A stretch of DNA of 64,000 nucleotides from a virus. Of this stretch, positions 10,259 to 64,000 are shown one piece after another. The notes under the pieces were generated by a model. It had not been told where the DNA came from and searched no databases. It saw nothing but the letters and a program-made list of their open reading frames with translations. The translations under genes and the position numbers were made by a program. Positions within the stretch are counted from its first letter, which is position 1. Each line of letters begins with the position of its first letter. The stretch lies in the IMG/VR virus record IMGVR_UViG_3300044742_000102. One strand, given 5' to 3'.

Positions 10259-10308
10259 TCTAATAGACATTTTCCAGAAAACCTCTAATAGACATTTCGA
10301 GAAACTCC
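10259..10308 (+). repeat. tandem ~24-nt repeat TCTAATAGACATTT(T)C-NN-GAAA(A)C(C)TCC upstream of gene 10324
   Basis: Two adjacent copies. Each combines the AGACATTT motif with a TTTC-NN-GAAA palindrome. They lie between the terminator and the next start codon. Confidence 0.7.
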
Positions 10309-25193: not shown

Positions 25194-25258
25194 CACTGTA
25201 CAGTACACAACACGGGGGTTTCTAGAAACCCCCTCACAACATTCTGTACTGTACAGTG
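25194..25258. repeat. nested inverted repeat
   Basis: Outer 13-bp arms CACTGTACAGTAC (25194-25206) and GTACTGTACAGTG (25246-25258) enclose the perfect 20-bp palindrome GGGGGTTTCTAGAAACCCCC (25214-25233). Confidence 0.85.
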
Positions 25259-26458: not shown

Positions 26459-26671
26459 TTAGGTGGTAACAACATGTCCGTTTCGAAGATGTACGCTAAG
26501 AGTGCCCTCTGTACCCCACACAGTGTGGACAGGTATGATGTTCTCGCAAGTAGAACAATAGCCTACGCTACGACCATTTTCGTGTCGTACATCTATCTTT
26601 CTATTACCCGAACCGGGACAGTGGGCTGGTAGTCCCAGGAATCGTGCGTAGGTACTGTTAGGAGTTTTCAT
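26459..26671 (-). CDS. small Cys-containing (zinc-binding-like) protein
   Basis: ATG at 26671, 10 nt after the upstream TAA. Translates as MKTPNSTYARFLGLPAHCPGSG...GYCSTCENI. Confidence 0.5.
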   Translation of the reverse strand: MKTPNSTYARFLGLPAHCPGSGNRKIDVRHENGRSVGYCSTCENIIPVHTVWGTEGTLSVHLRNGHVVTT

Positions 26672-26681
26672 GAAACCTTCG

Positions 26682-27074
26682 TTAGAATCTAAGGGTGCCT
26701 CGAAGGGTTCCAGCTTGTATGGCACGCTGTTGGGTATCTGCTGTTCCACGTGATTCTCCATCCCATATGGTATACACTTGTCCACCAATACGAACCATAA
26801 AATCGTTCCGAAGAAACCCCGCATGTTTACCCAGATACCAAGGAGCCTTCATTTCATATGCCTCAAATCCGCGCTGTACTGCTGTAATGTGGCTGATTCT
26901 GTCGATACCCGCTGCACCACCTGTCACGATGATGTGTTCTGCTGGATCAAGCTGTGCGATCAGATACTCTACCTGATCGAATGCAGCTACATACCGCTGT
27001 TCGTAGTTTTCTCGAAAACTTCTTTCTGAGTGCTTATCCAGCCTGCTACCCGCGATAACTGTGATTTCCTTCAT
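26682..27074 (-). CDS. SLOG-superfamily DUF2493-like protein
   Basis: VIAGSR...IIVTGGAAGIDRISH...GKHAGFLRNDFMV...WDGESRGT matches the GGAxGxD / AGxxRN / GxxGT pattern of DUF2493. ATG at 27074 follows a GGTGG RBS. Confidence 0.6.
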   Translation of the reverse strand: MKEITVIAGSRLDKHSERSFRENYEQRYVAAFDQVEYLIAQLDPAEHIIVTGGAAGIDRISHITAVQRGFEAYEMKAPWYLGKHAGFLRNDFMVRIGGQVYTIWDGESRGTADTQQRAIQAGTLRGTLRF

Positions 27075-28777: not shown

Positions 28778-28793
28778 AAGTTTCTAGAAACTT
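28778..28793. repeat. GTTTC-TA-GAAAC family palindrome
   Basis: AAGTTTCTAGAAACTT, a perfect 16-mer. Confidence 0.8.
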
Positions 28794-30686: not shown

Positions 30687-30897
30687 CCCCGATAATGAGT
30701 TCTACCTCAGCCAGCGTGGCTACCTTGACAATCATGCCGTTTCCTACGTTGACAGCGTAGCCATCGCGCTCTCGAACGACTCTGGAGCGTACTGCTGGTG
30801 CTTTGAGCCATTCTACGCTAGGTCGCTCCGTTTCGTTGCGTAGATCGTATCCACTGGTTATTTCGTATTCTGAGTTTTCTAGAAAACTTATTTCCAT
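30664..30897 (-). CDS. hypothetical protein
   Basis: GGAGG RBS. 77 aa. Codons 4-9 carry the palindrome at 30873-30888. Confidence 0.55.
   Translation of the reverse strand: MEISFLENSEYEITSGYDLRNETERPSVEWLKAPAVRSRVVRERDGYAVNVGNGMIVKVATLAEVELIIGDGSIPNG
30873..30888. repeat. GTTTTC-TA-GAAAAC family palindrome
   Basis: AGTTTTCTAGAAAACT, a perfect 16-mer. Confidence 0.8.
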
Positions 30898-43779: not shown

Positions 43780-44730
43780 TTATTGGGCCTTTCGCTTCCC
43801 ATCTCGGGAGTTTCTCGAACCTCCCTTACGGTCTCCACCGTGGGACCGCATGAAACCATTATCTTTCAGGTATTTCCTAAATCGCTTCTGTCCGAAACCA
43901 TAGCGTTGTGCTATCTCTTCTGTTGTGCCTTCTTCTGCTAGGAATGACTGTACAGCCTGCTGCATACGGATATCCTCTTCGAAGTCTTCCGCTTTCTTTT
44001 CCTCTGCCACCCTGTGCGGATCATCCGGTAGGATTCCTTGAATGGGCTGTTTGTTCAGCGTACATTCTACCCGTACTACATCACTATACATCTGTTGGAG
44101 TGACTGTACAGCTTCCCACGTACCGGGTACCGCAACGAACACGTTGGAGAGATACCATACCGGATCAGTCTCATCATAGTCATCTCGTGACCTGAATGCA
44201 ATGGCATCTGCACGCTTGGGTGGTAGCGCACAGCTAACCTCTGCCATATGTTCAGTCAGGAGTGAGATAATAGCCTTTGCGCTTACGAACATCACAAATG
44301 ATGAATAGCTACGAATAGCATCTGCATCTTCAAGCTGGTCTTTATATTCTTGATAGAGGAAGTTGTCGATAATATCCTGCCGCACGTGTCGTACGCTTAC
44401 ATCTGTGTCATAGTAGTGCATGTGCTGATACATCTGTGTAATTCTGTCGTGCCATGCTTCGTAGTCTTCTCCAGTTACCTTACAGTACGTTTTCAGATAC
44501 CGTTCGACACCCAGCCGTTCAGCGGTGCGGGATGGACGAACGGGCCGAATACCAAAGACCCGTTCGTCCTGTTCATCCATCCAAGTCATTCTAGCAAAGG
44601 CTTTCGAGAGGGCTTCGTTCAGCGCGACTTCGTTGGGGTATCTGTCAGGATACTCCGATGTATTCGAAAATCGTGCTGTCATGGTTATGCCTTCGTAGCA
44701 TTCAGAATCTTCTGCTGCTCGTCCCAACAT
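43780..44730 (-). CDS. hypothetical protein with C-terminal HTH-like and basic tail
   Basis: TEEIAQRYGFGQKRFRKYLKDNG, followed by an Arg/Lys/Gly-rich tail. Confidence 0.5.
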   Translation of the reverse strand: MLGRAAEDSECYEGITMTARFSNTSEYPDRYPNEVALNEALSKAFARMTWMDEQDERVFGIRPVRPSRTAERLGVERYLKTYCKVTGEDYEAWHDRITQMYQHMHYYDTDVSVRHVRQDIIDNFLYQEYKDQLEDADAIRSYSSFVMFVSAKAIISLLTEHMAEVSCALPPKRADAIAFRSRDDYDETDPVWYLSNVFVAVPGTWEAVQSLQQMYSDVVRVECTLNKQPIQGILPDDPHRVAEEKKAEDFEEDIRMQQAVQSFLAEEGTTEEIAQRYGFGQKRFRKYLKDNGFMRSHGGDRKGGSRNSRDGKRKAQ

Positions 44731-46725: not shown

Positions 46726-46810
46726 GTATACAAGTTCATAAAACGCGGTCCTGAGCATGACCACTACGTTCCTCTCACTATCATACGGGGACATAAAAAC
46801 TGCTCAACGT

Positions 46811-46882
46811 GGGGGTTTAGTTTACTTGGGAAAACCATTGCTTTGCACGCAGTAGTACGGGGTCCGAATCCCCGAACCTCCA
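46811..46882 (+). tRNA. tRNA-Ala(TGC)
   Basis: Hand-folded. Acceptor GGGGGTT/AACCTCC, anticodon loop TTTGCAC, T arm CGGGG-TCCGAAT-CCCCG. Confidence 0.75.
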
Positions 46883-46980
46883 CCCGTGACTGGCTGACTC
46901 ACGTTAATAATCAGTTCCGTGACTTGGGGACACGTACCCATGCCCAACCGTTTGCTGGTGTCGGTGAATAACCAACACAC

Positions 46981-47061
46981 GTGTCTGATGCGGGTGGACC
47001 CGCAGGGTGACTGTAAATCATCTGCATTGTGACAATGGGAGTTCGATTCTCCCCGGACACA
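46981..47061 (+). tRNA. tRNA-Tyr(GTA), long variable arm
   Basis: Acceptor GTGTCTG/CGGACAC, loop CTGTAAA, T arm GGGAG-TTCGATT-CTCCC. Confidence 0.75.
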
Positions 47062-47066
47062 CCCAC

Positions 47067-47140
47067 GCATCCATAAGACAATGGAAGTCTAGCGGACTTT
47101 TAATCCGTGAGTTTAGGTTCGATCCCTGATGGATGTACCA
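47067..47140 (+). tRNA. tRNA-Lys(TTT), CCA encoded
   Basis: Acceptor GCATCCA/TGGATGT, loop CTTTTAA, T loop TTCGATC. Confidence 0.75.
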
Positions 47141-47141
47141 A

Positions 47142-47214
47142 GCCCGTGTATTTCGACTGGCAGAATGTCATCTCGACATGATGAAGGATAGAGGTTCGAA
47201 TCCTCTCACGGGCA
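47142..47214 (+). tRNA. tRNA-Val(GAC) with unusual C33
   Basis: Acceptor GCCCGTG/CACGGGC, anticodon stem TCATC/GATGA, loop TCGACAT, T arm AGAGG-TTCGAAT-CCTCT. Confidence 0.6.
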
Positions 47215-47216
47215 CC

Positions 47217-47287
47217 CAGCATGTAGCATATTGGAAATGCACTGGACTGTGAATCCAGCTATGTGGGTTCGATTCTCACCTTGCTGA
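47217..47287 (+). tRNA. tRNA-His(GTG)
   Basis: Acceptor CAGCATG/CTTGCTG (one T-T mismatch), loop CTGTGAA, T arm GTGGG-TTCGATT-CTCAC. Confidence 0.7.
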
Positions 47288-47291
47288 CCCT

Positions 47292-47366
47292 GCCCCATTA
47301 GCTTAACGGAAGAGCTTGATCGTTCTAAGGTCTAAGGTGTGGGTTCAAATCCTACATGGGGTGCCA
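47292..47366 (+). tRNA. tRNA-Arg(TCT), CCA encoded
   Basis: Acceptor GCCCCAT/ATGGGGT, loop GTTCTAA, T arm GTGGG-TTCAAAT-CCTAC. Confidence 0.7.
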
Positions 47367-47367
47367 C

Positions 47368-47396
47368 TTGACAAACAATGAAAGATGTGATATAAT
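47368..47396 (+). promoter_or_regulatory. perfect sigma70-consensus promoter (TTGACA, 17-nt spacer, TATAAT)
   Basis: aCTTGACAAACaatgaaagatgtgaTATAATgtgg, immediately after tRNA-Arg. Confidence 0.8.
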
Positions 47397-47493
47397 GTGG
47401 CTCACAGCATTGATACTCTGGTTGATGGTGTTTGGAGCTATTGTGTGGATGTTGTGGGAACTGTATCATCCAGACTGATAAGGATGTGGTATA

Positions 47494-47571
47494 ATGATTA
47501 TCTGGCCGGGTGGACTTGTTGGATTGATTCTTATCATATTGATTGTGCTGTTCCTCACAGGGAACTGCTAG
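47494..47571 (+). CDS. 25-aa hydrophobic micro-ORF
   Basis: AGGA 9 nt upstream of the ATG. Translates as MIIWPGGLVGLILIILIVLFLTGNC. Confidence 0.3.
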   Translation: MIIWPGGLVGLILIILIVLFLTGNC

Positions 47572-47576
47572 AAATA

Positions 47577-47592
47577 GGTTTTCACGAAAACC
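47577..47592. repeat. GTTTTC-NN-GAAAAC family palindrome
   Basis: GGTTTTCacGAAAACC, followed by CTAGAAAG and then the ATG at 47608. Confidence 0.75.
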
Positions 47593-47607
47593 TAGAAAGC
47601 CTGTAGT

Positions 47608-47823
47608 ATGCTACAAATAAACATCTCAGAGGATGCACTAGAATCTCTCCTGTTTGATCGTGATATGACAGGCAATGCTATACGTGATTTTGCCAAACTT
47701 GCTGAGATTCTGATTCCAGTGCTCAAACGGGTGGGTGATGCGTGGGATTTAAACTATGATGCAAACTACATTGAAGAGGAACTCGAAAAAGCCATTGATA
47801 TTATTGTGAATTGGTGCGGATAA
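47608..47823 (+). CDS. hypothetical protein
   Basis: 71-aa acidic ORF. Confidence 0.55.
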   Translation: MLQINISEDALESLLFDRDMTGNAIRDFAKLAEILIPVLKRVGDAWDLNYDANYIEEELEKAIDIIVNWCG

Positions 47824-48068
47824 TGCTGCGTGTAACGGTTGAACTGATTCCGGGTGGATACCTTAGTAATAAGCGAAACATACGTGAACTGGAAATCACC
47901 AACACATCTGTTTCAAGTATCGTTGGTCACCCATCTACATACAAGGTCACATCAAAGGGTGACTACATCGACACCATCGAGGATTGGGATAGCAATAGAC
48001 CAGTCGAGGAACTTGTAGCTGAGGCATTGTTTAGTCTGCGTGATAGACCTCTTAGAGATTATTACTAA
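47823..48068 (+). CDS. hypothetical protein
   Basis: TAATG coupling to the upstream gene. Translates as MLRVTVELIPGGYLSNKRNIRELEITN.... Confidence 0.5.
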   Translation: MLRVTVELIPGGYLSNKRNIRELEITNTSVSSIVGHPSTYKVTSKGDYIDTIEDWDSNRPVEELVAEALFSLRDRPLRDYY

Positions 48069-48072
48069 TAAA

Positions 48073-48147
48073 CGCTCTTGTGCCAGCCGGTAGTTGGCAG
48101 GAAGCTTATATCTTCTTCATGAGCAGGTTCAACTCCTGAAAGAGCGA
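48073..48147 (+). tRNA. tRNA-Ile(TAT)
   Basis: Acceptor CGCTCTT/AAGAGCG, D arm GCCA-gccggtagt-TGGC, loop CTTATAT. Confidence 0.65.
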
Positions 48148-48149
48148 CC

Positions 48150-48239
48150 GGGACTGTCTCAAATGCGGGAAGCCTAGTACCTACGATCTGACTGTACAGC
48201 AGAGAGCGGGGAAGTGCCAGCGTTAGGTTTGCGGTCCCT
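48150..48239 (+). other. 90-nt tRNA-sized structured spacer without a canonical T arm
   Basis: A 7-bp closing stem GGGACTG/CGGTCCC resembles an acceptor stem, but I could not build a T loop or a cloverleaf. Confidence 0.3.
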
Positions 48240-48242
48240 CAT

Positions 48243-48313
48243 GCCCGGTTAGCATAATGGTAAGGCAACAGTGTTACATACTGTGGATAGAGGTTCAATT
48301 CCTCTACGGGGCA
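48243..48313 (+). tRNA. tRNA-Val(TAC)
   Basis: Acceptor GCCCGGT/ACGGGGC (one mismatch), anticodon stem ACAGT/ACTGT, loop GTTACAT. Confidence 0.7.
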
Positions 48314-48384
48314 CAGGGCTATATCACCAGCCCTCTTAGGGATCGCACATGCGGAGCCAGTGCGTTATCAACGCTCCGCAACAT

Positions 48385-48455
48385 GCTCTGTTATGCTAGT
48401 GGAAGGCAAACATTCTTTCAAAGTGTTGGCACGGGTTCGATCCCCGTACAGAGTA
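48385..48455 (+). tRNA. tRNA-Glu(TTC)
   Basis: Acceptor GCTCTGT/ACAGAGT, loop CTTTCAA, T arm ACGGG-TTCGATC-CCCGT. Confidence 0.75.
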
Positions 48456-48499
48456 CCGCATGGTTGTAGGTGACTGCGCTATAGAGTGGAACCTATAGT

Positions 48500-48519
48500 A
48501 AGTTTCACGAATGAAACTT
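48500..48519. repeat. hairpin with AGTTTC/GAAACT arms (same family as the palindromes)
   Basis: AAGTTTCA-cgaa-TGAAACTT. Confidence 0.7.
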
Positions 48520-48528
48520 TCTTATCAT

Positions 48529-48601
48529 CTGGCATTAGGGAAGCGGTCATCCCCCCGCGTTTGGAATGCGGTAGCCGGTAGTTCGAATCTACCATGCCAG
48601 A
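48529..48601 (+). tRNA. tRNA-Pro(TGG)
   Basis: Acceptor CTGGCAT/ATGCCAG, loop TTTGGAA, T arm GGTAG-TTCGAAT-CTACC. Confidence 0.8.
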
Positions 48602-48605
48602 CCCT

Positions 48606-48681
48606 CGAACCATCTTCTAGTGGATCAGGAAGCCTGTCTCTCACACAGGCAACACGAGTTCAAATCTCGTTGGTTCGACCA
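48606..48681 (+). tRNA. tRNA-Glu(CTC), CCA encoded
   Basis: Acceptor CGAACCA/TGGTTCG, anticodon stem CCTGT/ACAGG, loop CTCTCAC. Confidence 0.75.
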
Positions 48682-48682
48682 A

Positions 48683-48756
48683 CTCCCTATAGTGAAGTGG
48701 CCTATCACGCGGCCCTGTCAAGGCTGAGAACACGGGTTCGAATCCCGTTGGGGGGA
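48683..48756 (+). tRNA. tRNA-Asp(GTC)
   Basis: Acceptor CTCCCTA/TGGGGGG (two G-U pairs), D arm GTGA..TCAC, loop CTGTCAA. Confidence 0.7.
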
Positions 48757-48897
48757 CTAACATGCGTAAGTGTGCAACTCCGAATGGTAAACGATCATCA
48801 CTGAATGAATATGCTACACATGCTCGTAGTGGTAGACTACAGATGAAGCAACAGCATTGGTCATCGGTACGTAGAATAACGAAAGACTGGTTGAAGC

Positions 48898-49137
48898 ATG
48901 AGAAAGCGTATTGGTAGCTACGAACTAGAAACGATGCGAAAATATAAAGGCCGTGCGTTTGCTATTACTAAGATCGTAGGTGAGCACAAAGAAACACGTG
49001 TACCGTGGAGATTCTGGATATGTTTCACCTATCTTGTAAAACGGCTAACATATCAGCATTCGCACCATACTTTCGAAAGCTATAAATGGCTGGCAATACC
49101 ATTTATAACAATTCAGTATACATACACTCCTTCATAG
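48898..49137 (+). CDS. hypothetical protein (doubtful)
   Basis: 79-aa ORF whose last 10 nt overlap tRNA-Phe. Confidence 0.35.
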   Translation: MRKRIGSYELETMRKYKGRAFAITKIVGEHKETRVPWRFWICFTYLVKRLTYQHSHHTFESYKWLAIPFITIQYTYTPS

Positions 49138-49198
49138 CTCAGAAGTAGAGCGTCCGGTTGAAGCCCGGTGTGGATCGGAGCGTTACCGGTTGAGGGAA
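49128..49198 (+). tRNA. tRNA-Phe(GAA) with non-canonical T loop
   Basis: Acceptor TCCTTCA/TGAGGGA, D arm AGCTCAGAAGTAGAGC, loop TTGAAGC, T arm ATCGG-AGCGTTA-CCGGT. Confidence 0.6.
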
Positions 49199-49202
49199 CC
49201 CT

Positions 49203-49277
49203 ATCCTCATAGTTCAAGGGATAGAACGAGGGCTTGCGAAGCCTTTGGTCGCAGTTCGAATCTGCGTGAGGATGCCA
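49203..49277 (+). tRNA. tRNA-Arg(GCG), CCA encoded
   Basis: Acceptor ATCCTCA/TGAGGAT, loop TTGCGAA, T arm CGCAG-TTCGAAT-CTGCG. Confidence 0.7.
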
Positions 49278-49278
49278 T

Positions 49279-49350
49279 GCCGCTATAACATAAAGGAGAG
49301 TGTTTCGGACTTCGAATCCGAGAGTCGTGGTTCGATTCCACGTAGCGGTA
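49279..49350 (+). tRNA. tRNA-Arg(TCG)
   Basis: Acceptor GCCGCTA/TAGCGGT, anticodon stem TCGGA/TCCGA, loop CTTCGAA. Confidence 0.75.
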
Positions 49351-49354
49351 CCTT

Positions 49355-49425
49355 ACCTTTGTGGTGTAATGGTAACACAACTGTTTTGTAATCAGTTACT
49401 GCGGGTTCGATTCCTGCCATTGGTG
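49355..49425 (+). tRNA. tRNA-Thr(TGT) with two T-T mismatches in the acceptor stem
   Basis: Acceptor ACCTTTG/CATTGGT, D arm GTGT-aatggta-ACAC, loop TTTGTAA. Confidence 0.6.
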
Positions 49426-49430
49426 CCCTT

Positions 49431-49455
49431 GCTAGTATCAGATACTCGTACTAGC
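49431..49455. repeat. hairpin following the CCTTGCTAG motif
   Basis: GCTAGTA...TACTAGC arms with an inner palindrome AGTATCaGATACT. Confidence 0.65.
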
Positions 49456-49622
49456 TCGTGAGTGTAAGAGTGTCCAGCCACTTGTCAATCATGACAGGTA
49501 AGGAGTACCCCACACGACAGTCTCACGAAGATCATAGATCGACTGTCTCACTCCACAACAGACTGATCCACCATATGTGGAAACAGATCATTGACCGTTA
49601 GACCAACTAGCGGTCATTGCTT

Positions 49623-49696
49623 GCGGGATTGAGTTACCGGTAAACTGCGACTCTTCCAAAGTTGATAAGCCGGTTCAATTCCGGCATCCCGCACCA
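49623..49696 (+). tRNA. tRNA-Gly(TCC), CCA encoded
   Basis: Acceptor GCGGGAT/ATCCCGC, loop CTTCCAA, T arm GCCGG-TTCAATT-CCGGC. Confidence 0.8.
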
Positions 49697-49712
49697 TTAG
49701 AATGGAGTCCTG

Positions 49713-50036
49713 ATGGACATTGACACTACATTAATCATACAGGGTGGAGTATTCGGTGCCGTTGGTGTACTCACATCAGTCAAGCTATTGACTAGCTATT
49801 TCAAGAAGTTCTTTGATCTACGTGGCCGATGGGTCATGGGTATGACCCTGCTCTTGTCTGCATACGCGGTATCGACTGCGATACTATCAGTCTACTGGTC
49901 CATCGTAGGTCTCGTGTTCATGGGAGTATACCTAACCGTATTGGTGGCTACAACAGCAGATGCCTACTTTCAGCAAGAAGAAGCTACGCAGGTACAACGC
50001 GCTGCGGAGCATCCTGATAAGGTTCGTTTACGATAG
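49713..50036 (+). CDS. membrane protein, 3 TM segments (holin-like candidate)
   Basis: GGAG RBS. Hydrophobic stretches GGVFGAVGVLTSVKLL, MGMTLLLSAYAVSTAILSVYW and IVGLVFMGVYLTVLVA. Confidence 0.55.
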   Translation: MDIDTTLIIQGGVFGAVGVLTSVKLLTSYFKKFFDLRGRWVMGMTLLLSAYAVSTAILSVYWSIVGLVFMGVYLTVLVATTADAYFQQEEATQVQRAAEHPDKVRLR

Positions 50037-50106
50037 GCAGCAATAAGCTAGCGGTAAACTTCTACATTGCCAATGTAGACTCAGGAGTTCGATCCTCCTT
50101 TGCTGC
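50037..50106 (+). tRNA. tRNA-Gly(GCC)
   Basis: Acceptor GCAGCAA/TTGCTGC, anticodon stem CTACA/TGTAG, loop TTGCCAA. Confidence 0.75.
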
Positions 50107-50153
50107 ACTTTGCGGTTGATGGTAACGCGCAATCGCGGTGGAACCATCATCAT

Positions 50154-50234
50154 GTACTTGTGGTGGAATGGCATACACGATAGCCTTAGAAGCTATTCTC
50201 GCAAGGGGTGCAGGTTCGAATCCTGTCAGGTACA
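50154..50234 (+). tRNA. tRNA-Leu(TAG), long variable arm
   Basis: Acceptor GTACTTG/CAGGTAC, anticodon stem ATAGC/GCTAT, loop CTTAGAA. Confidence 0.75.
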
Positions 50235-50302
50235 CAAAGAGGTTGGTGGCAACGCTCACTAATATGTCTGTGAGTTACCCTCTCTAAAAACCACCCATCT
50301 AT

Positions 50303-50375
50303 GCGGGTATGGTGAAACGGCAAACACAACTGGTTTAAGCCCAGCACGCTACAGGTTCGAATCCTGTTACCCGTA
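50303..50375 (+). tRNA. 73-nt type-I tRNA carrying the Leu anticodon TAA (short variable loop)
   Basis: Acceptor GCGGGTA/TACCCGT, loop TTTAAGC, 5-nt variable loop ACGCT, T arm ACAGG-TTCGAAT-CCTGT, discriminator A73. Confidence 0.6.
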
Positions 50376-50380
50376 CCCAT

Positions 50381-50461
50381 GTGCGATTGGTGGAATGGCA
50401 TACACGCAAGTCTGAGAGGCTTGTCTCGCAAGAGATGGGAGTTCGAGTCTCCTGTCGCACA
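50381..50461 (+). tRNA. tRNA-Leu(GAG), long variable arm
   Basis: Acceptor GTGCGAT/GTCGCAC, loop CTGAGAG, T arm GGGAG-TTCGAGT-CTCCT. Confidence 0.75.
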
Positions 50462-50480
50462 CTAGTTAGAAAGTAGCAAT

Positions 50481-50687
50481 ATGACATCAAGTATCGGTCG
50501 GATCGTACACTACGTAGACTATGATGGTCGGCACATTGCAGCAATGATTGTGCAGCTTGCTGATGAAGATACGAATGAGGAACGACTCGCTATTTTTGAT
50601 CCATACTACAACACAACAATGTGGAGAGATGCATCACAAGATGCAGAATGTGGACTAACAACATGGCATGAGCCAGAAAGGGTATAA
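50481..50687 (+). CDS. hypothetical protein
   Basis: 68 aa, preceded by the TAGAAAGTAG leader. Confidence 0.5.
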   Translation: MTSSIGRIVHYVDYDGRHIAAMIVQLADEDTNEERLAIFDPYYNTTMWRDASQDAECGLTTWHEPERV

Positions 50688-50689
50688 CA

Positions 50690-50884
50690 ATGCACATGAC
50701 ATCAGCGCAGGCAGAAGCAATCGTAGAAGCGTTTCGTGTAGCAGCGATCACAACACTGACACACCTAACTCGTAGGTTCCTCTTCACTGTAGTCAGTACA
50801 CCGGGTGTGACATGGAACACCGCACAGGCTGCATACCTGAATGCACGAGACATTCACGCAGCGGAGCCGTTCGTAGAAACATAA
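50690..50884 (+). CDS. hypothetical protein
   Basis: 64-aa ORF. Confidence 0.45.
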   Translation: MHMTSAQAEAIVEAFRVAAITTLTHLTRRFLFTVVSTPGVTWNTAQAAYLNARDIHAAEPFVET

Positions 50885-50887
50885 AAT

Positions 50888-50968
50888 GGAAGGTTGGCAG
50901 AGTGGTAATGCAGCGGTTTGCTAAACCGTAGGGGGCAACCTCCAGGGGTTCGATTCCTCTACTTTCCG
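50888..50968 (+). tRNA. tRNA-Ser(GCT), long variable arm
   Basis: Acceptor GGAAGGT/ACTTTCC, loop TTGCTAA, variable arm AGGGGGCAACCTCC. Confidence 0.75.
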
Positions 50969-51003
50969 CTTGGTCCTGAGCAGGACTATAAAAGGCTCAA
51001 CAT

Positions 51004-51075
51004 GTCTCCGTAGCACAATGGTACTGCTACTGGCTCTTACCCAGCAGAATACTGGTTCGAATCCAGTCGGGGACA
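51004..51075 (+). tRNA. tRNA-Lys(CTT)
   Basis: Acceptor GTCTCCG/CGGGGAC, loop CTCTTAC, T arm ACTGG-TTCGAAT-CCAGT. Confidence 0.7.
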
Positions 51076-51098
51076 CCCCCCTAGAAAGTAGTTACACC

Positions 51099-51404
51099 AT
51101 GCAATCAGGCATTGACTACATTCAGGAACAGATCGAAAGAGGGAATACAGGCAACTTTGCGAGTAATCAATTTACGAATGAAGAAGCCCTACAATTCTTT
51201 CAAACCATCGAACAGCTAGGTGGTCATGTGACTATACCAGAAATATATAAAGATCACGATGGACCCGGTGAAGACTATGCTGACTCGTGTGAGGTACACC
51301 TGTATACGGACACATTGTTTGGTGAAATTATGATTACAATAATCCCACACAGCCCAGATGATATGGAGTTCAAGACCGATCTTGTCTGGTTGTGGTGGGA
51401 CTAA
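51099..51404 (+). CDS. hypothetical acidic protein
   Basis: I chose the ATG at 51099, after the TAGAAAGTAG leader. The upstream part of the tracked ORF covers two tRNAs. Confidence 0.5.
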   Translation: MQSGIDYIQEQIERGNTGNFASNQFTNEEALQFFQTIEQLGGHVTIPEIYKDHDGPGEDYADSCEVHLYTDTLFGEIMITIIPHSPDDMEFKTDLVWLWWD

Positions 51405-51407
51405 TAT

Positions 51408-51481
51408 TCCAGAGTCTTCTAAGGGTAGGAAGGCTGTCTTTGAAACAGCTAATGAATGTTCGAATCATTCCTTTGGAACCA
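51408..51481 (+). tRNA. tRNA-Gln(TTG), CCA encoded
   Basis: Acceptor TCCAGAG/CTTTGGA (U1-A72), anticodon stem GCTGT/ACAGC, loop CTTTGAA. Confidence 0.8.
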
Positions 51482-51499
51482 TCCTAGAAAGAGATATAC

Positions 51500-51799
51500 A
51501 TGGTTAATTATACTGGTGTGTGGTTGTGTAACGATGCCGGTGACTGTTCAATGGTGGAGCGTAGCGATGATAATTGCTATGTTGCTGTAGAAGTTGGTGT
51601 TGTTAAGGATACTATGCCATACTACAACAGCGTGAAGCTCATTGTAGCATTGCCAAATGTCCTTGCTGCATCTCCTACGTTTATGAATATATTTCAACAA
51701 GAGTTTGTAGAAGCAACGGCATACCTACACCGCTATGCTGTAGAAAAGCTAGAAAGTAGTTCTCATGCAGATCATACCGCTTCTTCGAACATTTCTTGA
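51500..51799 (+). CDS. hypothetical protein
   Basis: 99 aa, preceded by the CCTAGAAAG leader. Confidence 0.5.
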   Translation: MVNYTGVWLCNDAGDCSMVERSDDNCYVAVEVGVVKDTMPYYNSVKLIVALPNVLAASPTFMNIFQQEFVEATAYLHRYAVEKLESSSHADHTASSNIS

Positions 51800-51824
51800 C
51801 AACAACAGAGATGTGAAGGTTGTT

Positions 51825-52181
51825 ATGTTCGAGATGGGTACACGCGAGTACGAGATATTCGAAGAGGAATTGGATAGTATGCGCTACTACCCACGCACGC
51901 ATGAACAATTATCATTTTGTGGAGTACCTATTGTGCGTACGGGTGATCCCGGTATATGTGCAAAAATTCAACAGTGGATCATTATTTCGGACTCTGCTAA
52001 TGGTAGGCAAGCTGTCTCTGAAACAGCCAATCTAGGTCCGACTCCTAGGTCCGAAGCAGACCAGTTTATTATAGATCACTATAGTAAGCTGGAGTGTAGA
52101 ACAAACTATGGTGAAACTCGTGGTCGTAGAGATATTCGTACCTACAACCATTGGGACTATGCAGACTCAATTGGGGAGTAA
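51825..52181 (+). CDS. hypothetical ORF that reads through tRNA-Gln(CTG) (3' extent doubtful)
   Basis: MFEMGTREYEIFEEELD.... The frame stays open across the tRNA at 51986-52056 and stops inside the next tRNA. Confidence 0.35.
   Translation: MFEMGTREYEIFEEELDSMRYYPRTHEQLSFCGVPIVRTGDPGICAKIQQWIIISDSANGRQAVSETANLGPTPRSEADQFIIDHYSKLECRTNYGETRGRRDIRTYNHWDYADSIGE
51986..52056 (+). tRNA. tRNA-Gln(CTG)
   Basis: Acceptor TTCGGAC/GTCCGAA, anticodon stem GCTGT/ACAGC, loop CTCTGAA, T arm CTAGG-TCCGACT-CCTAG. A paralogue of the tRNA at 51408. Confidence 0.7.
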
Positions 52182-52244
52182 CGCAAATGGTTCGCGGCAT
52201 CTCTGATAAGGATGTATTCGAAGGTCCGATTCCTTCATTCCCCA
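52173..52244 (+). tRNA. tRNA-Ile(GAT)
   Basis: Acceptor GGGGAGT/ATTCCCC, loop CTGATAA, T arm GAAGG-TCCGATT-CCTTC. Confidence 0.7.
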
Positions 52245-52251
52245 CCGGTTT

Positions 52252-52292
52252 GGCAGTATTACCTCTAGTTAGCTTTTCTAGTGAAAACTGCC
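52252..52292. repeat. hairpin GGCAGT...ACTGCC enclosing TTTTC-tagt-GAAAA
   Basis: 6-bp outer arms with an inner motif of the palindrome family. Confidence 0.6.
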
Positions 52293-52297
52293 TATAT

Positions 52298-52368
52298 TCC
52301 CCGGTCGTATAAAGATATTACGCGACTCTGTTAAAGTCATTATAGAGGTTTGATTCCTCTCTGGGGAG
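52298..52368 (+). tRNA. tRNA-Asn(GTT)
   Basis: Acceptor TCCCCGG/CTGGGGA, loop CTGTTAA, T arm AGAGG-TTTGATT-CCTCT. Confidence 0.7.
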
Positions 52369-52370
52369 CC

Positions 52371-52433
52371 TTGCTAGGTTGTAGTGTCATGTAAAATGTG
52401 GGTCATCGGCACACACCCCACATTACCTAGCAA
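52371..52433. repeat. long two-tier hairpin following CCTTGCTAG
   Basis: Outer arms TTGCTAGGT/ACCTAGCAA (9 bp) and inner arms AATGTGGG/CCCACATT (8 bp). Confidence 0.75.
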
Positions 52434-52436
52434 TAT

Positions 52437-52509
52437 GTCACACTAATTCATCTGGTAGAATGCGTTCTTGGTAAGAACGATGTACTGAGTTCAAGTCTCA
52501 GGTGTGGCT
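52437..52509 (+). tRNA. tRNA-Thr(GGT)
   Basis: Acceptor GTCACAC/GTGTGGC, anticodon stem CGTTC/GAACG, loop TTGGTAA. Confidence 0.8.
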
Positions 52510-52518
52510 CCGCGATCA

Positions 52519-52572
52519 TGGGGAACCAAGTGGCTAGGATATCATAGGTAGATGCGAGTTCTACTTCCCTAT
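52519..52572 (+). other. 54-nt mini-helix / D-arm-less tRNA-like element
   Basis: Acceptor-like TGGGGAA/TTCCCTA plus a T-arm-like GTAGA-tgcgagt-TCTAC. Too short for a cloverleaf. Confidence 0.3.
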
Positions 52573-52583
52573 GGTGCGTGCTT

Positions 52584-52654
52584 GTCGTTGTAGTTTAGTG
52601 GAAGAACAAGTGTTTCGTAAACACTGAGCAGCAGTTCGAATCTGCTCTTCGGCT
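52584..52654 (+). tRNA. tRNA-Thr(CGT) with two T-T mismatches in the acceptor stem
   Basis: Acceptor GTCGTTG/CTTCGGC, anticodon stem AGTGT/ACACT, loop TTCGTAA. Confidence 0.6.
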
Positions 52655-52694
52655 CATGTAGTGAGTCGGATTTATTCGGCTCTTAGGAGGTTAC

Positions 52695-52955
52695 GTGGAT
52701 ATTCAGTCATTGCTTGGTAGAATGGGTGCTGGTGGTGGACAAGCTGGTGGTGGTATGCCACCCGGAATGGGTGGTGGTGGACAGGGTATGGAAGCTATCA
52801 TGCCATTCCTGATGATGCTACTAAAGCAGATGTTAGGACAGAGTGGTGCTATGCCACAGGGGCAGGCAGGACCACCGGGTATGGGTGGTGGAATGCCCTT
52901 CGCTAGTGCCCTAGGTGCTCAGGGTGGACAAGGTATGCCACCGGGAATGATGTAA
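52695..52955 (+). CDS. Gly/Met/Pro/Gln-rich low-complexity protein (GGM-repeat-like)
   Basis: AGGAGG RBS, 5 nt, then GTG. Contains MPPGMGGGGQGM, GPPGMGGGMPF and GGQGMPPGMM. Confidence 0.55.
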   Translation: MDIQSLLGRMGAGGGQAGGGMPPGMGGGGQGMEAIMPFLMMLLKQMLGQSGAMPQGQAGPPGMGGGMPFASALGAQGGQGMPPGMM

Positions 52956-52979
52956 TACACGGGGCTACGGCCCCAACAT

Positions 52980-53050
52980 ATGCCATTCGTATAACGGAAG
53001 TACAACTGATTCCAAACCAGTTAGCGCGGGTTCGACTCCTGCATGGTGTG
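52980..53050 (+). tRNA. tRNA-Trp(CCA)
   Basis: Acceptor ATGCCAT/ATGGTGT (two G-U pairs), loop TTCCAAA, T arm GCGGG-TTCGACT-CCTGC. Confidence 0.65.
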
Positions 53051-53076
53051 CCGTGGGTCCAGCCTAGGAATCTTTA

Positions 53077-53097
53077 GTGACTAGCAAAGCTAGTCAC
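53077..53097. repeat. perfect 9-bp-stem hairpin
   Basis: GTGACTAGC-aaa-GCTAGTCAC. Confidence 0.8.
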
Positions 53098-53099
53098 GC

Positions 53100-53120
53100 G
53101 GAGTCAGCCTTGCTGACTCC
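53100..53120. repeat. perfect 9-bp-stem hairpin
   Basis: GGAGTCAGC-ctt-GCTGACTCC, 2 nt after the previous hairpin. Confidence 0.8.
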
Positions 53121-53233
53121 TATGAAAGCGAACGCACTACTCTTCGTAGTAGGTGCCCCGACAGGTTCCAGTGATGAGTTGGGTGGCCGGAACAGTGCGA
53201 TATAACCACAACCAAAAAGGCATCGCACAACAT

Positions 53234-53315
53234 GGAAGAGCTAACGTTGGAGAGTGTAGCTGCCTTGAACGCAGTAGGGCTAAATGCCCAGCGGGTTCGA
53301 ATCCTGTCTCTTCCG
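53234..53315 (+). tRNA. tRNA-Ser(TGA), long variable arm
   Basis: Acceptor GGAAGAG/CTCTTCC, loop CTTGAAC, variable arm AGGGCTAAATGCCCA. Confidence 0.7.
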
Positions 53316-53452
53316 CTGTGTGCAACAAGAGGATAATGTGATTCCGTGGGCATGTACCACAGCAGGGAATCGGTACTCGGCCTCAGTGTACCTGCACCGC
53401 TACAACTGAATATGCTTGTCAGCCTGATGACACCTTGGTCGCGCTCGGTAGG

Positions 53453-53468
53453 AGTTTTCTCGAAAACT
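53453..53468. repeat. GTTTTC-NN-GAAAAC family palindrome
   Basis: AGTTTTCtcGAAAACT, overlapping a second palindrome ACTTCGAAGT (53466-53475). Confidence 0.7.
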
Positions 53469-53495
53469 TCGAAGTCACAGCCCTTCTGGCAACGA

Positions 53496-53618
53496 TGAAC
53501 CGAAGCACGTACGCTGTCAGACCGGCCAGTCAACAGCTATAGGCACGTGTCGGTAGAGCACACTACTGCCCACTGATTGTGAAATTGTGGGTTGCAGGTT
53601 CGAATCCTGTCCGGTTCT
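53496..53618 (+). other. atypical tRNA-like element / possible pseudo-tRNA
   Basis: Canonical T arm GCAGG-TTCGAAT-CCTGT (53594-53610) and a D-loop-like TCGGTAGAGCAC. The only acceptor partner (GAACCGA/CCGGTTC) lies about 120 nt away, across an inserted hairpin (CACGT...ACGTG). No 7-nt anticodon loop can be formed. Confidence 0.3.
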
Positions 53619-53623
53619 TTCGT

Positions 53624-53694
53624 GGCTCATTGATCGAGCAGTTAGATAGCTGTCTGCAAAACAGTGTACACTGGTGCAAATCCAGTATGAGCCT
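53624..53694 (+). tRNA. tRNA-Cys(GCA)
   Basis: Acceptor GGCTCAT/ATGAGCC, loop CTGCAAA, T arm ACTGG-TGCAAAT-CCAGT. Confidence 0.75.
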
Positions 53695-53696
53695 CC

Positions 53697-53716
53697 GGGG
53701 TTTTCTAGAAAACCCC
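53697..53716. repeat. GC-clamped GTTTTC-TA-GAAAAC palindrome
   Basis: GGGGTTTTCTAGAAAACCCC, a perfect 20-mer between tRNA-Cys and the next tRNA. Confidence 0.85.
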
Positions 53717-53722
53717 TTCCTT

Positions 53723-53796
53723 ATCCACGTATGCTAATTGGCAAAGCAAATAGTTTCAAAAACTGTTGAATGCGAGTTCGAATCTCGCGGTGGATA
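53723..53796 (+). tRNA. 74-nt type-I tRNA carrying the Leu anticodon CAA (short variable loop)
   Basis: Acceptor ATCCACG/GGTGGAT (6 of 7 pairs), D arm TGCT..AGCA, loop TTCAAAA, variable loop TGAAT, T arm GCGAG-TTCGAAT-CTCGC, discriminator A73. Confidence 0.6.
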
Positions 53797-53799
53797 CAT

Positions 53800-53875
53800 T
53801 GCGGTGTAGAGAAGTAGTCATCTCGCTTGGCTCATAACCAAGAAAACGTTGGTGCAAACCCAACCACCGCTACCA
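53800..53875 (+). tRNA. tRNA-Met(CAT) with a T1xT72 mismatch, CCA encoded (initiator-like or Ile2 possible)
   Basis: Acceptor TGCGGTG/CACCGCT, anticodon stem CTTGG/CCAAG, loop CTCATAA, T arm GTTGG-TGCAAAC-CCAAC. Confidence 0.65.
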
Positions 53876-53876
53876 T

Positions 53877-53948
53877 GTCTATAGAGCCAAACGGTGAGGC
53901 CGATGTTTCATACGCATCTTACACTCAGTTCGACTCTGAGTATAGACA
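53877..53948 (+). tRNA. tRNA-Met(CAT) (elongator or Ile2 type)
   Basis: Acceptor GTCTATA/TATAGAC, anticodon stem GATGT/GCATC, loop TTCATAC, T arm CTCAG-TTCGACT-CTGAG. Confidence 0.7.
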
Positions 53949-54095
53949 CCTAAGAGGGAGAGCCAGAACACCACTAGTCATAAGACTCACATTTGTTGTA
54001 GGGAAGCATCTGGCTTGCCCCTCTTATACGCTCGTAGTATTCACTACGGGCTTATTTGCGTTCCCGTAGCGTGCAAGCGCAACGAAAGGCATGAC

Positions 54096-54500
54096 ATGGC
54101 ATTACGCATTCGACACGTACTTGACAAGAACAACCTGTACGCAGTATATTTTCTAGAAACAGCACCGTGGGCACAGCTTGTGCCGTGTTTGCACCAGGCA
54201 CTCGTTGATCGCACCCATTTTGATGATGATGAGAACGAAATATCAGTGAACGAAATCCTCGGTCTGGTTGTTACAACTGATGGTATTGTACCAGCAGATG
54301 AATCACCGACCGGCATCTTTATGTGGTATGTTGATGGCAATGCTGTCAACCTGACCGACTATCACATGGAAATGGTTAAGCTCAGTTCGGCACAGTTCCA
54401 AGCAGCACAGCCACCACCAACACCACCAGAGGCAGTGACACGAGTATTCGAGCAACGTAAGGGCAAGCAGAATGGCAAATCCCAGCGAAGACCTACGTAG
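54096..54500 (+). CDS. hypothetical protein, first gene of the packaging module
   Basis: I chose the ATG at 54096, after GAAAGG (MALRIRHVLDKNN...). The tracked ORF start at 54015 lies in a structured non-coding stretch. Confidence 0.5.
   Translation: MALRIRHVLDKNNLYAVYFLETAPWAQLVPCLHQALVDRTHFDDDENEISVNEILGLVVTTDGIVPADESPTGIFMWYVDGNAVNLTDYHMEMVKLSSAQFQAAQPPPTPPEAVTRVFEQRKGKQNGKSQRRPT
54121..54159 (+). promoter_or_regulatory. promoter-like TTGACA, 18-nt spacer, TATATT, fused to TTTTCTAGAAA (inside a CDS)
   Basis: TTGACAagaacaacctgtacgcagTATATTTTCTAGAAAC. The location inside a gene makes function uncertain. Confidence 0.3.
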
Positions 54501-55023: not shown

Positions 55024-55025
55024 GC

Positions 55026-55662: not shown

Positions 55663-55698
55663 GCGCACAGATACGATCACCTACATAGGAATGGTATA

Positions 55699-57264: not shown

Positions 57265-57269
57265 AGCGT

Positions 57270-59387: not shown

Positions 59388-59388
59388 T

Positions 59389-60818: not shown

Positions 60819-60833
60819 TCTAGGGAGACACAT

Positions 60834-61613: not shown

Positions 61614-61614
61614 G

Positions 61615-63223: not shown

Positions 63224-64000
63224 ATGTCTGCATCAGTACAGCAGATCGTGAAGGATACAATTGTACCCAAGATCGAGCGCAAGCAGCCTCTCACAAACCT
63301 TACCGTACAACAGGTAACACAGCCCCTCGCAACACAGCAAGCACAACAACCGAAGAAAGGCAAGAATCTACTAGACCGTGCGCTACATGTGCCGGGAGAG
63401 GGGCTACACTATCTTGGTGAGGCACTCGACCTATCTGGTAAGTATCTAGCCCGACCGACACTTGGTGTAGCATCACGAGCAGCATCTAGCAACACACCGG
63501 TTGGTGACTATATCCGTGCAATGGCAAAGAGCCGCAGAAACGCACCGCTCACATGGGACTTGGGACCGGTTGATATTGGTCTTGGTCCGATGTTCATACC
63601 GGGTACAGTCGCAGATGTAATCGCACCACACAATGAAGCACAACGCAAGCAGGTACAGAAGTCAGGCTCTCTGACACAAGCATGGAGAGAACAGGCTAAG
63701 GGTAACAGTTTCCTAGAGAACGTACTCGCAGAAATTGCTGCCGATCCTACCACGTGGATCACAGCAGGTACCGCTGGTGCAGCAATGAAGCTGCCAAAGG
63801 TTGCATCTCTTGCTGCACGACACCCTGTTCTCGCAGCGGAGACACTCCAAGCAATCAACCGACTCCAAGACCTACAGGCTCTTCCTATACTTGGTCCCCT
63901 AAAGGGTGCAAAGAAGGCTATACAACTCGTTAAGAAGGATGCCTTTGTAGAAACCAAAGAGACCGGAGTATTGAAGAAAATTCGTGATGTTATTGGAGCA
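63224..64000 (+). CDS. virion protein, 3' end cut by the window edge
   Basis: TAGGAGG RBS, 5 nt, then the ATG at 63224. The frame stays open for 259 codons to the last base of the window. Confidence 0.6.
   Translation, partial: MSASVQQIVKDTIVPKIERKQPLTNLTVQQVTQPLATQQAQQPKKGKNLLDRALHVPGEGLHYLGEALDLSGKYLARPTLGVASRAASSNTPVGDYIRAMAKSRRNAPLTWDLGPVDIGLGPMFIPGTVADVIAPHNEAQRKQVQKSGSLTQAWREQAKGNSFLENVLAEIAADPTTWITAGTAGAAMKLPKVASLAARHPVLAAETLQAINRLQDLQALPILGPLKGAKKAIQLVKKDAFVETKETGVLKKIRDVIGA

Follow-up and report, generated by a model that had tools for sequence, protein, structure and literature searches.

A lineage-specific family of dispersed palindromes with a TTTC-NN-GAAA core in the genome of an uncultivated soil phage

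Bacterial chromosomes contain short hairpin-forming repeats, the REP/BIME elements (~20-40 bp), which lie in transcribed intergenic DNA, where they attenuate transcription and make upstream mRNA more stable. These elements are dispersed and specific to a lineage, and the REPs carry a GTAG/CTAC head, are linked to RAYT (a Y1 transposase) and are mostly found at the 3′ ends of genes. Phages have repeats of their own. In the T4-type phages RB49 and phi1, PeSL (promoter-early stem-loop) cassettes carry stem-loops, often GGGG...CCCC, between small ORFans in plastic regions; these stem-loops have been tied experimentally to the termination or attenuation of transcription and to cassette shuffling (PMC2839356). 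In Cluster K mycobacteriophages, SAS is an asymmetric 13-mer containing the ribosome-binding site, while ESAS are imperfect 17-mers with variable spacers (PMC3203893). The stoperators of Cluster A phages are present in 20-30 genome-wide copies, often at gene boundaries, and act on elongating transcription, not solely at promoters; they are asymmetric, orientation-dependent sites of 13-14 bp that are bound by the monomeric immunity repressor of a temperate phage (PMC9283540, PMC6550527). Finally, the solitary CRISPR-repeat mimics known as Racr are full-length units of ~28-37 nt that match the repeat of the host (PMC10651486). Here, we report the analysis of a family of dispersed palindromes, built on the core TTTC-NN-GAAA, in a 64,000-nt stretch of viral DNA (IMG/VR record IMGVR_UViG_3300044742_000102), hereafter called the window.

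The palindrome family is real, very strongly enriched and lineage-specific. The window contains 12 TTTC-NN-GAAA sites, where 400 dinucleotide-preserving shuffles gave 0.53 on average and never more than 4, which bears out the recurrence claimed in a preliminary description of this DNA. When perfect arms of at least 6 bp are required, seven sites are left (arms of 6-10 bp) versus 0.04 in the shuffles (maximum 1). Among all 256 interrupted palindromes of the 4-2-4 form, TTTCNNGAAA ranks first and the second has 6 occurrences; TTTCTAGAAA is the most over-represented 10-mer of the window (5 versus 0.046 expected), and of the 13 perfect palindromes of the window whose arms reach 7 bp or more around a centre of 2 nt or less, 7 belong to the family. 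As a control, 372 kb of unrelated phage contigs gave 12 TTTC-NN-GAAA, all with arms shorter than 6 bp. The 12 sites of the window all have a spacing of 2 nt: a spacing of 1 was never found, a spacing of 4 only once (at 52274), and TTTC..GAAA at other spacings is not enriched (6 versus ~4 expected). Two sites, 54149 and 34368, are at chance level. The palindrome sequence is identical across independent JGI, ENA and Logan assemblies.

The source is an uncultivated soil phage with a genome of ~74 kb, most of which is covered by the window. The same phage was found in independent assemblies, as contigs of 74,245 and 74,354 bp, and a further locus (L134) is 100% identical to window positions 52004-64000 and extends 9.2 kb past the window end. 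Contigs Ga0364941_000004 and SRR35198163 came from soils. No nucleotide match was detected among 50,697 GenBank phage records, protein matches being distant only, and no close cultured phage that could identify the host was found. The nearest relatives compared are L142 (75% amino acid identity for gp134 and ~70-77% nucleotide identity), L001 and L005 (75% for the ribonucleotide reductase (RNR) and 67% for TerL, at the amino acid level) and L007 (53% for TerL), which have collinear genes and a syntenic tRNA array. A TerL of 86% identity was also seen in JGI sample 3300007004, on a contig of just 1.8 kb.

All eleven sites of the preliminary description exist, each lying within 2 nt of where it had been placed. 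Together with the copies that it had missed, they are as follows.

25214..25233: GGGGGTTTCTAGAAACCCCC, a perfect palindrome of 20 bp within the longest intergenic region of the minus-strand block, nested in an outer inverted repeat CACTGTACAGTACA...TGTACTGTACAGTG, flanked by a 7-bp direct repeat (CACAACA) and followed by a 131-aa ORF; RNA hairpin of -13.2 kcal/mol, terminator-like on the minus strand in our scan.
26664..26677, minus strand: GGTTTCATGAAAAC, an imperfect copy (T3/A4), previously missed; the ATG at its centre probably starts a 70-aa Cys-rich open reading frame (ORF; 26671-26459) with the Shine-Dalgarno sequence GAAGG.
27005..27020: AGTTTTCtcGAAAACT, a perfect 16-mer, the same as at 53453 and previously missed; codons 19-24 (S-F-R-E-N) of a DprA/SLOG-like gene, within an 8-codon insertion relative to the L001 orthologue.
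28778..28793: AAGTTTCTAGAAACTT, with a central TAG that serves as stop codon for the upstream gene (29182-28784), and with its end 4 nt ahead of the ATG (28773) of the next gene, a 197-aa ORF; flanked by a 6-bp direct repeat (GCATTG).
30873..30888: AGTTTTCTAGAAAACT, at +10 to +25 in a 77-aa gene (M-E-I-S-F-L-E-N), with the class II RNR gene 100 nt upstream; the 77-aa product is longer at its N-terminus than the L001 orthologue.
43806..43825: GGGAGTTTCTCGAACCTCCC, with 9-bp arms and one core mismatch, previously missed, a probable degenerate member of the family; it lies 26 nt away from where genes 43780-44730 and 43156-43779 meet.
47575..47594 (previously placed at 47577): TAGGTTTTCacGAAAACCTA, a 20-bp palindrome in an intergenic gap, followed by GAAAG and by an ATG (47608) 13 nt past the palindrome; the RNA hairpin region reaches -9.8 kcal/mol.
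L134:17569-17588, outside the window: twin of the 47575 20-mer with its central dinucleotide reverse-complemented, followed by GAAAG and, 14 nt past the palindrome, by the start codon (ATG) of the gene preceding the capsid gene.
L134:15158-15171, outside the window: a copy within the 2113-aa gene.
48500..48519, plus strand: AAGTTTCAcgaaTGAAACTT, with AAGTTTC arms as at 28778 and a centre of 4-6 nt (-6.9 kcal/mol); it ends 8 nt ahead of tRNA-Pro in a Glu-Pro spacer of 70 nt (1 nt in L142), and its membership in the family is uncertain.
53453..53468, plus strand: AGTTTTCtcGAAAACT, in the tRNA-Ser to tRNA-Cys spacer; as RNA of the transcribed strand it can be extended by G.U and G-C pairs, and the relatives have unrelated sequence there.
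53697..53716, plus strand: GGGGTTTTCTAGAAAACCCC, filling the 26-nt tRNA-Cys to tRNA-Leu spacer from one base past tRNA-Cys to 6 nt short of tRNA-Leu; hairpin of -11 kcal/mol, terminator-like on the plus strand in the scan.
10259..10308, plus strand: a tandem 25/24-bp repeat with one weak copy per unit (TCTAATAGACATTTTCcaGAAAACC, TCTAATAGACATTTCgaGAAACTCC), between a canonical terminator (10218-10250) and an ATG at 10324.
52274..52287, plus strand: TTTTCtagtGAAAA, the inner stem of a 53-nt element in the tRNA-Ile(GAT)/tRNA-Asn spacer.
54149..54160, plus strand: TTTTCTAGAAAC, codons 18-21 (Y-F-L-E) of a conserved 134-aa gene, at chance level.
63707..63721, plus strand: AGTTTCCTAGAGAAC, encoding N-S-F-L-E-N-V in the 2113-aa gene; two synonymous transitions short of a perfect palindrome, it may be a decayed coding copy.

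Three of the sites first listed are weaker or of another kind: 54149 is a chance-level occurrence, 48500 has a different loop and 52274 belongs elsewhere. Since its spacer is conserved in L142 and L007, the 52274 site probably belongs to an older structured element of its own rather than to the family.

Only (T)TTTC-NN-GAAA(A) is invariant in these copies; the outer bases vary by type and are complementary in every copy. Three arm types can be distinguished: GGGG(G/T)TTTCTAGAAA(A/C)CCCC for 25214 and 53697, TAGGTTTTC(ac/gt)GAAAACCTA for 47575 and its twin in L134, and A(A/G)(G/T)TTTC-TN-GAAA(A/C)(C/T)T for 27005, 28778, 30873 and 53453. Beyond these, TGTTTCcaGAAACA lies within the 2113-aa gene. 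Depending on the copy, the core is extended by GGGGG/CCCCC, GGGG/CCCC, TAGG/CCTA, AA/TT, A/T or T/A pairs, and we calculated a chance probability of about 1e-5 for these arm extensions, assuming four independent founder types. Such extended pairing with varying bases is not enforced by the independent half-sites of a dimer. Moreover, the length of the T and A runs is matched between arms (T3/A3 or T4/A4) in all nine perfect copies and in both units of the 10259-10308 repeat, a compensatory T:A to G:C change separates 25214 from 53697, and the AAGTTTC arms are retained in 48500 under a different loop. Folded as RNA, the GC-clamped copies reach -10 to -13 kcal/mol, two of them passing the terminator-like scan. 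A conserved apex on covarying basal pairs, as in protein-recognised RNA hairpins of the boxB, MS2-operator or histone stem-loop type, is thus found in this family.

The position of the copies relative to genes is also informative. Of the nine perfect copies, with arms of 6 bp or more, six are in non-coding DNA, which represents ~10% of the genome, in agreement with the earlier proposal that the signal operates at the nucleic acid level. The argument that had been drawn from copies lying in different reading frames did not survive: all coding copies share the frame TTT-CNN-GAA (SFREN, SFLEN, FPET, YFLET). The copies concentrate in two places, the tRNA/ORFan region and the accessory section of the replication block, and are placed 4-14 nt ahead of start codons, on a start codon, or 6-8 nt ahead of tRNA 5′ ends. 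With crude start coordinates and a window of -40 to +60 chosen post hoc, 6 of 12 sites are close to a start versus 2.7 expected (P about 0.03). No copy overlaps any of the four strong intergenic sigma70 promoters, at 46697(+), 47368(+), 30608(-) and 45567(-) (each position +/-1). The 54149 site had been described as fused to a promoter-like -10 element, and we rejected it as a promoter or operator. Its TTGACA-N18-TATATT falls within a conserved ORF whose 75%-identical homologue keeps the peptide YFLE and not the DNA motif, the sequence there being TTCCTAGAAT; for this reason the site provides no evidence for an operator.

Within the lineage, all cores are unchanged in at least 10 strain contigs of 96.6-100% identity (JGI, ENA and Logan assemblies). 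In contrast, syntenic relatives at about 70-77% nucleotide identity lack the family, and relative to them each site that can be compared falls on an insertion or a replacement. A lack of conservation in relatives had been named beforehand as counting against the claim, and this is what is seen at that distance; however, the copies do not vary among the strains of the lineage itself. Invariance in the lineage combined with absence in the next relatives points to a regulatory or mobile element that was recently gained and spread. Relative to these phages, copies are accompanied by 8 extra codons in the DprA-like gene (27005), a longer N-terminus of the 77-aa gene (30873) and a Glu-Pro spacer of 70 nt versus 1 nt; the Cys-Leu spacer holds a 75-nt pseudo-tRNA-like sequence in L142 and L005, and almost nothing in L007. 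Short direct repeats of at least 5 bp flank 4 of 10 sites versus 0.7 expected, with 7 bp at 25214 (null P of 0.004), 6 bp at 28778 (0.018) and 5 bp at two other sites. The motif had been presented as undescribed, and our searches concur: an exact-string search of the literature returned no description, and the 20-mers are in no other IMG/VR contig. A scan of IMG/VR with the 14-mer GTTTTCTAGAAAAC gave over 119 single random matches, with no contig of comparable density, and was uninformative. Against 185,579 species genomes, the 18-mer gave 8 scattered unrelated matches and no array.

How does this family compare with the systems described so far? By its features, the stem-loop part of the PeSL cassettes is the closest described analogue. 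In both cases, repeated stem-loops adjoin the Shine-Dalgarno sequence and start codon (ATG) of the following gene, vary among close relatives and are found at junctions of insertion, deletion or replacement, here the indels relative to L001, L005, L007 and L142. A near-identical sigma70 promoter (CTTGACAAAC...TATAAT) is likewise reused in those regions of the present phage. However, a PeSL couples its stem-loop to a sigma70-like early promoter in a conserved intergenic unit of roughly 100 bp, and the repeat is here a 16-20-bp palindrome alone, with no adjoining -35/-10 pair, and as this defining promoter component is absent, the family is not a PeSL member. It also differs in that its conserved part is the A/T-rich apex TTTC-NN-GAAA and not a G/C tract, and in that some copies are in frame within genes or adjoin tRNAs.

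Like SAS/ESAS, the palindromes are multi-copy, occur just upstream of starts as inverted repeats by the ribosome-binding site and have no known function (PMC3203893). Nevertheless, SAS/ESAS are cluster-wide and in one orientation, whereas here the palindromes are perfect and the orthologous positions of relatives lack the motif; in addition, SAS/ESAS hold a fixed position 3-8 bp upstream of starts, while the distances measured here range from -44 to +70 and beyond. The stoperators differ by their asymmetry, the present sites being palindromic, and neither a repressor nor an integrase domain was found in our Pfam scans. With REP/BIME the family shares short, hairpin-forming, lineage-specific and dispersed repeats, but the flanks of the copies lack a GTAG head, no transposase domain was detected in the scanned ORFs and no bias towards gene 3′ ends was seen. 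The copy units measure only 16-20 nt, against the ~28-37 nt of a full CRISPR-repeat unit.

Several palindromic operators are written with similar letters: the CodY box AATTTTCWGAAAATT, the ParB parS site TGTTTCAC-GTGAAACA, the Noc NBS and the KorA operator GTTTAGCTAAAC. TTTC and GAAA are separated by 1 nt in the 15-bp CodY box and by 4 nt in the 16-bp parS and NBS, and KorA, KorB and ParB have several sites per replicon. The likeness is one of letters only (symmetric TTTC...GAAA or GTTT...AAAC arms), since the spacing is here 2 nt and the KorA centre differs; hix-like, parS-like and CodY-like sites were all rejected for mismatched geometry, and the scanned ORFs gave no gene like those of ParB, KorA or CodY. 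Rfam 15, used at the gathering threshold on the window, returned tRNA models only. The G+C-rich stem, 3-8-nt loop and U-tract of an intrinsic terminator are seen at 53697(+) and 25214(-) only, and not in the family as a whole. Judging from these comparisons, we would class the family as a dispersed regulatory or recombinogenic hairpin repeat of phage genomes that is new in its sequence.

We tentatively favour, with less than even confidence, the reading that the copies are lineage-specific, dispersed, hairpin-forming palindromic repeats acting on transcripts at cistron and tRNA boundaries. Our commitment comes from the covarying pairs, the matched arms, the loop tolerance of 48500 and a placement at boundaries rather than promoters, all of which are hairpin-like and not predicted by the independent half-sites of a dimer. 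The selected property would be intra-strand pairing, each copy presenting an A/U-rich conserved apex, (U)UUUC-NN-GAAA(A), above basal pairs whose sequence is free (GGGG/CCCC, UAGG/CCUA or A(R)/(Y)U). We infer that RNA, and not single-stranded DNA, is the acting molecule, that a factor reading the conserved apex is probably involved, and that gene expression is affected. The GC-clamped copies (25214 and 53697) could be attenuators or 3′-end-protecting stem-loops, while those near start codons (28778, 26664, 47575, L134:17569 and 30873) could serve as processing, stability or translation-control signals. The copies would have been gained recently, by insertion or replacement, and would then have spread in the genome.

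Several observations weigh against this hairpin reading. Four copies of the AGTTTTC/AAGTTTC type are absent from the minimum-free-energy fold, and their regions fold no better than shuffles. The C and G beside the 2-nt centre are invariant, though a 2-nt loop is sterically poor, and the spacing is fixed at 2 as it would be in a dimer site. No excess of G.U wobbles on the transcribed strand was seen among one-mismatch variants of the motif. A boundary role does not suit the copy found at +55 to +70 of one gene, nor that located mid-gene in another. The conservation test within the lineage has low power (0 segregating sites versus 2.3 expected, P about 0.1), as just 2.3 polymorphic positions are expected in the cores. 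Finally, no RNA-binding protein or RNase, and likewise no regulator or transposase, was recognised in our protein scans, which covered ~75 ORFs with Pfam and 10 ORFans beside copies with PHROGs. Repeated boundary hairpins are one of the few handles on expression and gene shuffling in uncultivated phages, and this family is unusually clean, with its perfect palindromes, conserved apex and covarying pairs. If it is a recognition hairpin, it points to a phage or host factor acting on mRNAs and on the 35-tRNA precursor.

The preliminary description had left the choice between an operator and an RNA stem-loop, and the anatomy of the copies leans to the hairpin without settling it. As double-stranded DNA operators, the sites would be bound at TTTC-NN-GAAA by a symmetric dimer, of the phage or of the host, that represses, activates or road-blocks transcription genome-wide, in the manner of global repressors with numerous operators. 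We consider this unlikely, yet it stays alive as a rival because of the fixed 2-nt centre, other spacings not being enriched, of the invariant C and G beside it, and of the weakness of half the stems, which is irrelevant for a double-stranded site. The symmetry and invariance of the TTTC/GAAA core, and central dinucleotides in both orientations, would equally suit a symmetric reader, and the two sites 24 bp apart in the 10259-10308 repeat, after a strong terminator and before a late gene, are where a new promoter or regulatory region is expected. On the other hand, no credible intergenic promoter is overlapped by a copy, the sole overlap being that of 54149 inside its conserved ORF, and some copies adjoin tRNA ends or fall within genes. 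HTH dimers contact half-sites spaced by roughly 10 bp, which is wider than the conserved bases, confined here to +/-5 bp of the dyad. Half-site recognition predicts neither outer positions that vary and remain complementary, nor the G/C that moves by one position between T3 and T4 copies. The scans revealed no HTH, RHH or other regulator domain, which is weak evidence since most ORFs are ORFans. A different use of paired DNA sites, as serine-recombinase crossover sites with a 2-bp centre and an inverted pair of identical 20-mers, was rejected: no recombinase was found in the scanned ORFs, and a 22-kb inversion would part genes from their ribosome-binding sites.

Rather more doubtful is a self-spreading or mutationally generated mini-palindrome with little or no function, whose 16-25-bp insertions would copy themselves to new places, or be copied there by recombination or repair, and would be tolerated mainly in non-coding DNA or in frame. 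Such an origin would account for the absence of the family from syntenic relatives, where each comparable site is an insertion or replacement, for identical 16-, 18- and 20-mers at unrelated loci, and for the excess of flanking direct repeats. It also fits the coding copies, which all use the single stop-free frame reading F-x-E, and the degenerate 63707 site, which keeps SFLEN and has lost the palindrome by two synonymous changes. Yet the scanned ORFs contain no detected transposase, RAYT or recombinase, and no mechanism is known for so short a mobile unit. The direct repeats were found post hoc and differ in length and offset; that of 7 bp is broken by a single-nucleotide polymorphism in some strains, where the palindrome is unchanged. 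Strains of 96.6-100% identity show no presence/absence polymorphism, and tight conservation of the core over three arm subfamilies suggests constraint. In a more specific and distinctly improbable version, a miniature mobile palindrome of 16-25 bp would insert itself, or be inserted by a phage nuclease or repair activity, in a lytic phage, sometimes leaving 5-7-bp duplications and adding in-frame SF[L/R]EN peptides that decay synonymously. Under the spreading reading, no shorter mobile repeat would have been described in a virus, and the family would supply proteins with in-frame peptide insertions. That the copies are ordinary intrinsic (Rho-independent) terminators sharing a stem sequence by chance is very improbable. 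Although 53697 (plus) and 25214 (minus) pass the scan for a stem and T-rich tail, the remaining copies have weak A/U stems without a U-tract, some are intragenic or lie in the tRNA array with further tRNAs downstream, and the canonical terminators of this phage (10218, 54030 and 46266) have unrelated sequences with clear T-tracts. As for a chance or compositional artefact, or a by-product of protein coding, it is refuted by the shuffle statistics and its probability is negligible. It suits only the weak 54149 (with YFLE conserved in homologues) and 34368 sites, at their expected level, and the mild enrichment of CTAGAAA as a junction of stop codon and ribosome-binding site; none of the 400 shuffles comes close to the observed counts, most strong copies are non-coding, and the independent assemblies carry the same sequence.

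The rest of the genome is organised in three parts.

54.1-64 kb and 0-13.4 kb, plus strand: structural block, with TerL and portal genes.
13.5-46.1 kb, minus strand: replication genes for a family A DNA polymerase, DnaB-like helicase, Toprim primase, class II RNR, dCTP deaminase-like protein and dNMP kinase.
46810-53950, plus strand: array of 35 tRNA genes, 33 detected by ARAGORN and 2 by Rfam only (49128-49198 and 52173-52244).

The gene order of the tRNA array is syntenic in L142, L007 and L005, with spacer lengths that vary widely (0-700 nt). The tRNA-Ile(GAT)/tRNA-Asn spacer is 51-53 nt long and has the form GGCAGTATTACC..TTTTCTNNTGAAAACTGCC in the window (52245-52297), in L142 (7716-7766) and in L007 (about 6416-6465); it is conserved though the TerL proteins of those phages are just 53-75% identical, and is probably a structured RNA or processing element. 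In the ~300-nt non-coding spacer between tRNA-Ser and tRNA-Cys (53317-53623), blocks such as GCTATCAGACCGGCCAGTCAATAGCT are kept in L005, L007 and L142, and this region may be a non-coding RNA or a decayed tRNA. The spacers 48315-48384 and 48458-48527 are both exactly 70 nt long (1-2 nt in L142) and unrelated to each other in sequence; they may be decayed tRNA genes or inserted elements. L142 has its own CTAG-centred 20-bp perfect palindrome (GGGACTACCTAGGTAGTCCC, 8929-8948), 5 nt upstream of tRNA-Trp, and L141 has AGGGTAGTCAaacTGACTACCCT. Hairpins next to tRNAs may be general in this phage group, with lineage-specific sequences. CTTAG..CTAAG hairpins at two orthologous tRNA spacers of L005 were dismissed as an analogous motif, one of them being a T-arm-like part of the pseudo-tRNA spacer common to L142.

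The early promoters are sigma70-like, and CTTGACAAAC-N14-TATAAT was found three times. The sigma70 promoters are near-identical, with a shared extended -35 decamer (CTTGACAAAC) and TGnTATAAT, a reused unit that recalls PeSL promoters. At gene starts, CTAGAAAG recurs 5-10 nt ahead of the ATG, at 51081, 51484, 51749, 47592 and 45875(-) and at L134:17587; it joins a TAG stop codon with a purine-rich ribosome-binding site, and CTAGAAA is ~3-fold enriched even away from the palindromes.

The 2113-aa ORFan (2014 aa in some strains) starts in the window (63224-64000), runs on to L134:17562 and sits between an SLT/NLPC_P60 gene and scaffold-like and SU10-type capsid genes. Its product lacks a DxDxD motif and matches nothing in Pfam or PDB by sequence, and we discarded on these grounds the idea of a virion RNA polymerase with hairpin promoters. 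Three Endonuclease_7/HNH-type genes are present in the 74-kb genome (window 16588-16989 and 45579-45860; L134:19318-19749), with no link to palindrome copies seen. The third varies between strains (143 aa versus 84 aa), as expected of a mobile homing endonuclease gene.

Around the 25214 copy, a nested palindrome cluster at 25150-25300 comprises ATACGCGACAatcgcacTGTCGCGTAT (25264), AGTGTGAtacttTCACACT (25179) and the outer repeat of that copy, and marks the border between a block of small ORFs with a strong GC skew (14-24 kb, about -0.27) and the replication block. Two small ORFan proteins encoded beside copies contain Cys clusters, HCPGSG...CSTC in 26459-26671(-) and CPVC...CDCP in 28784-29182(-), a pattern which suggests zinc ribbons that could bind nucleic acid.

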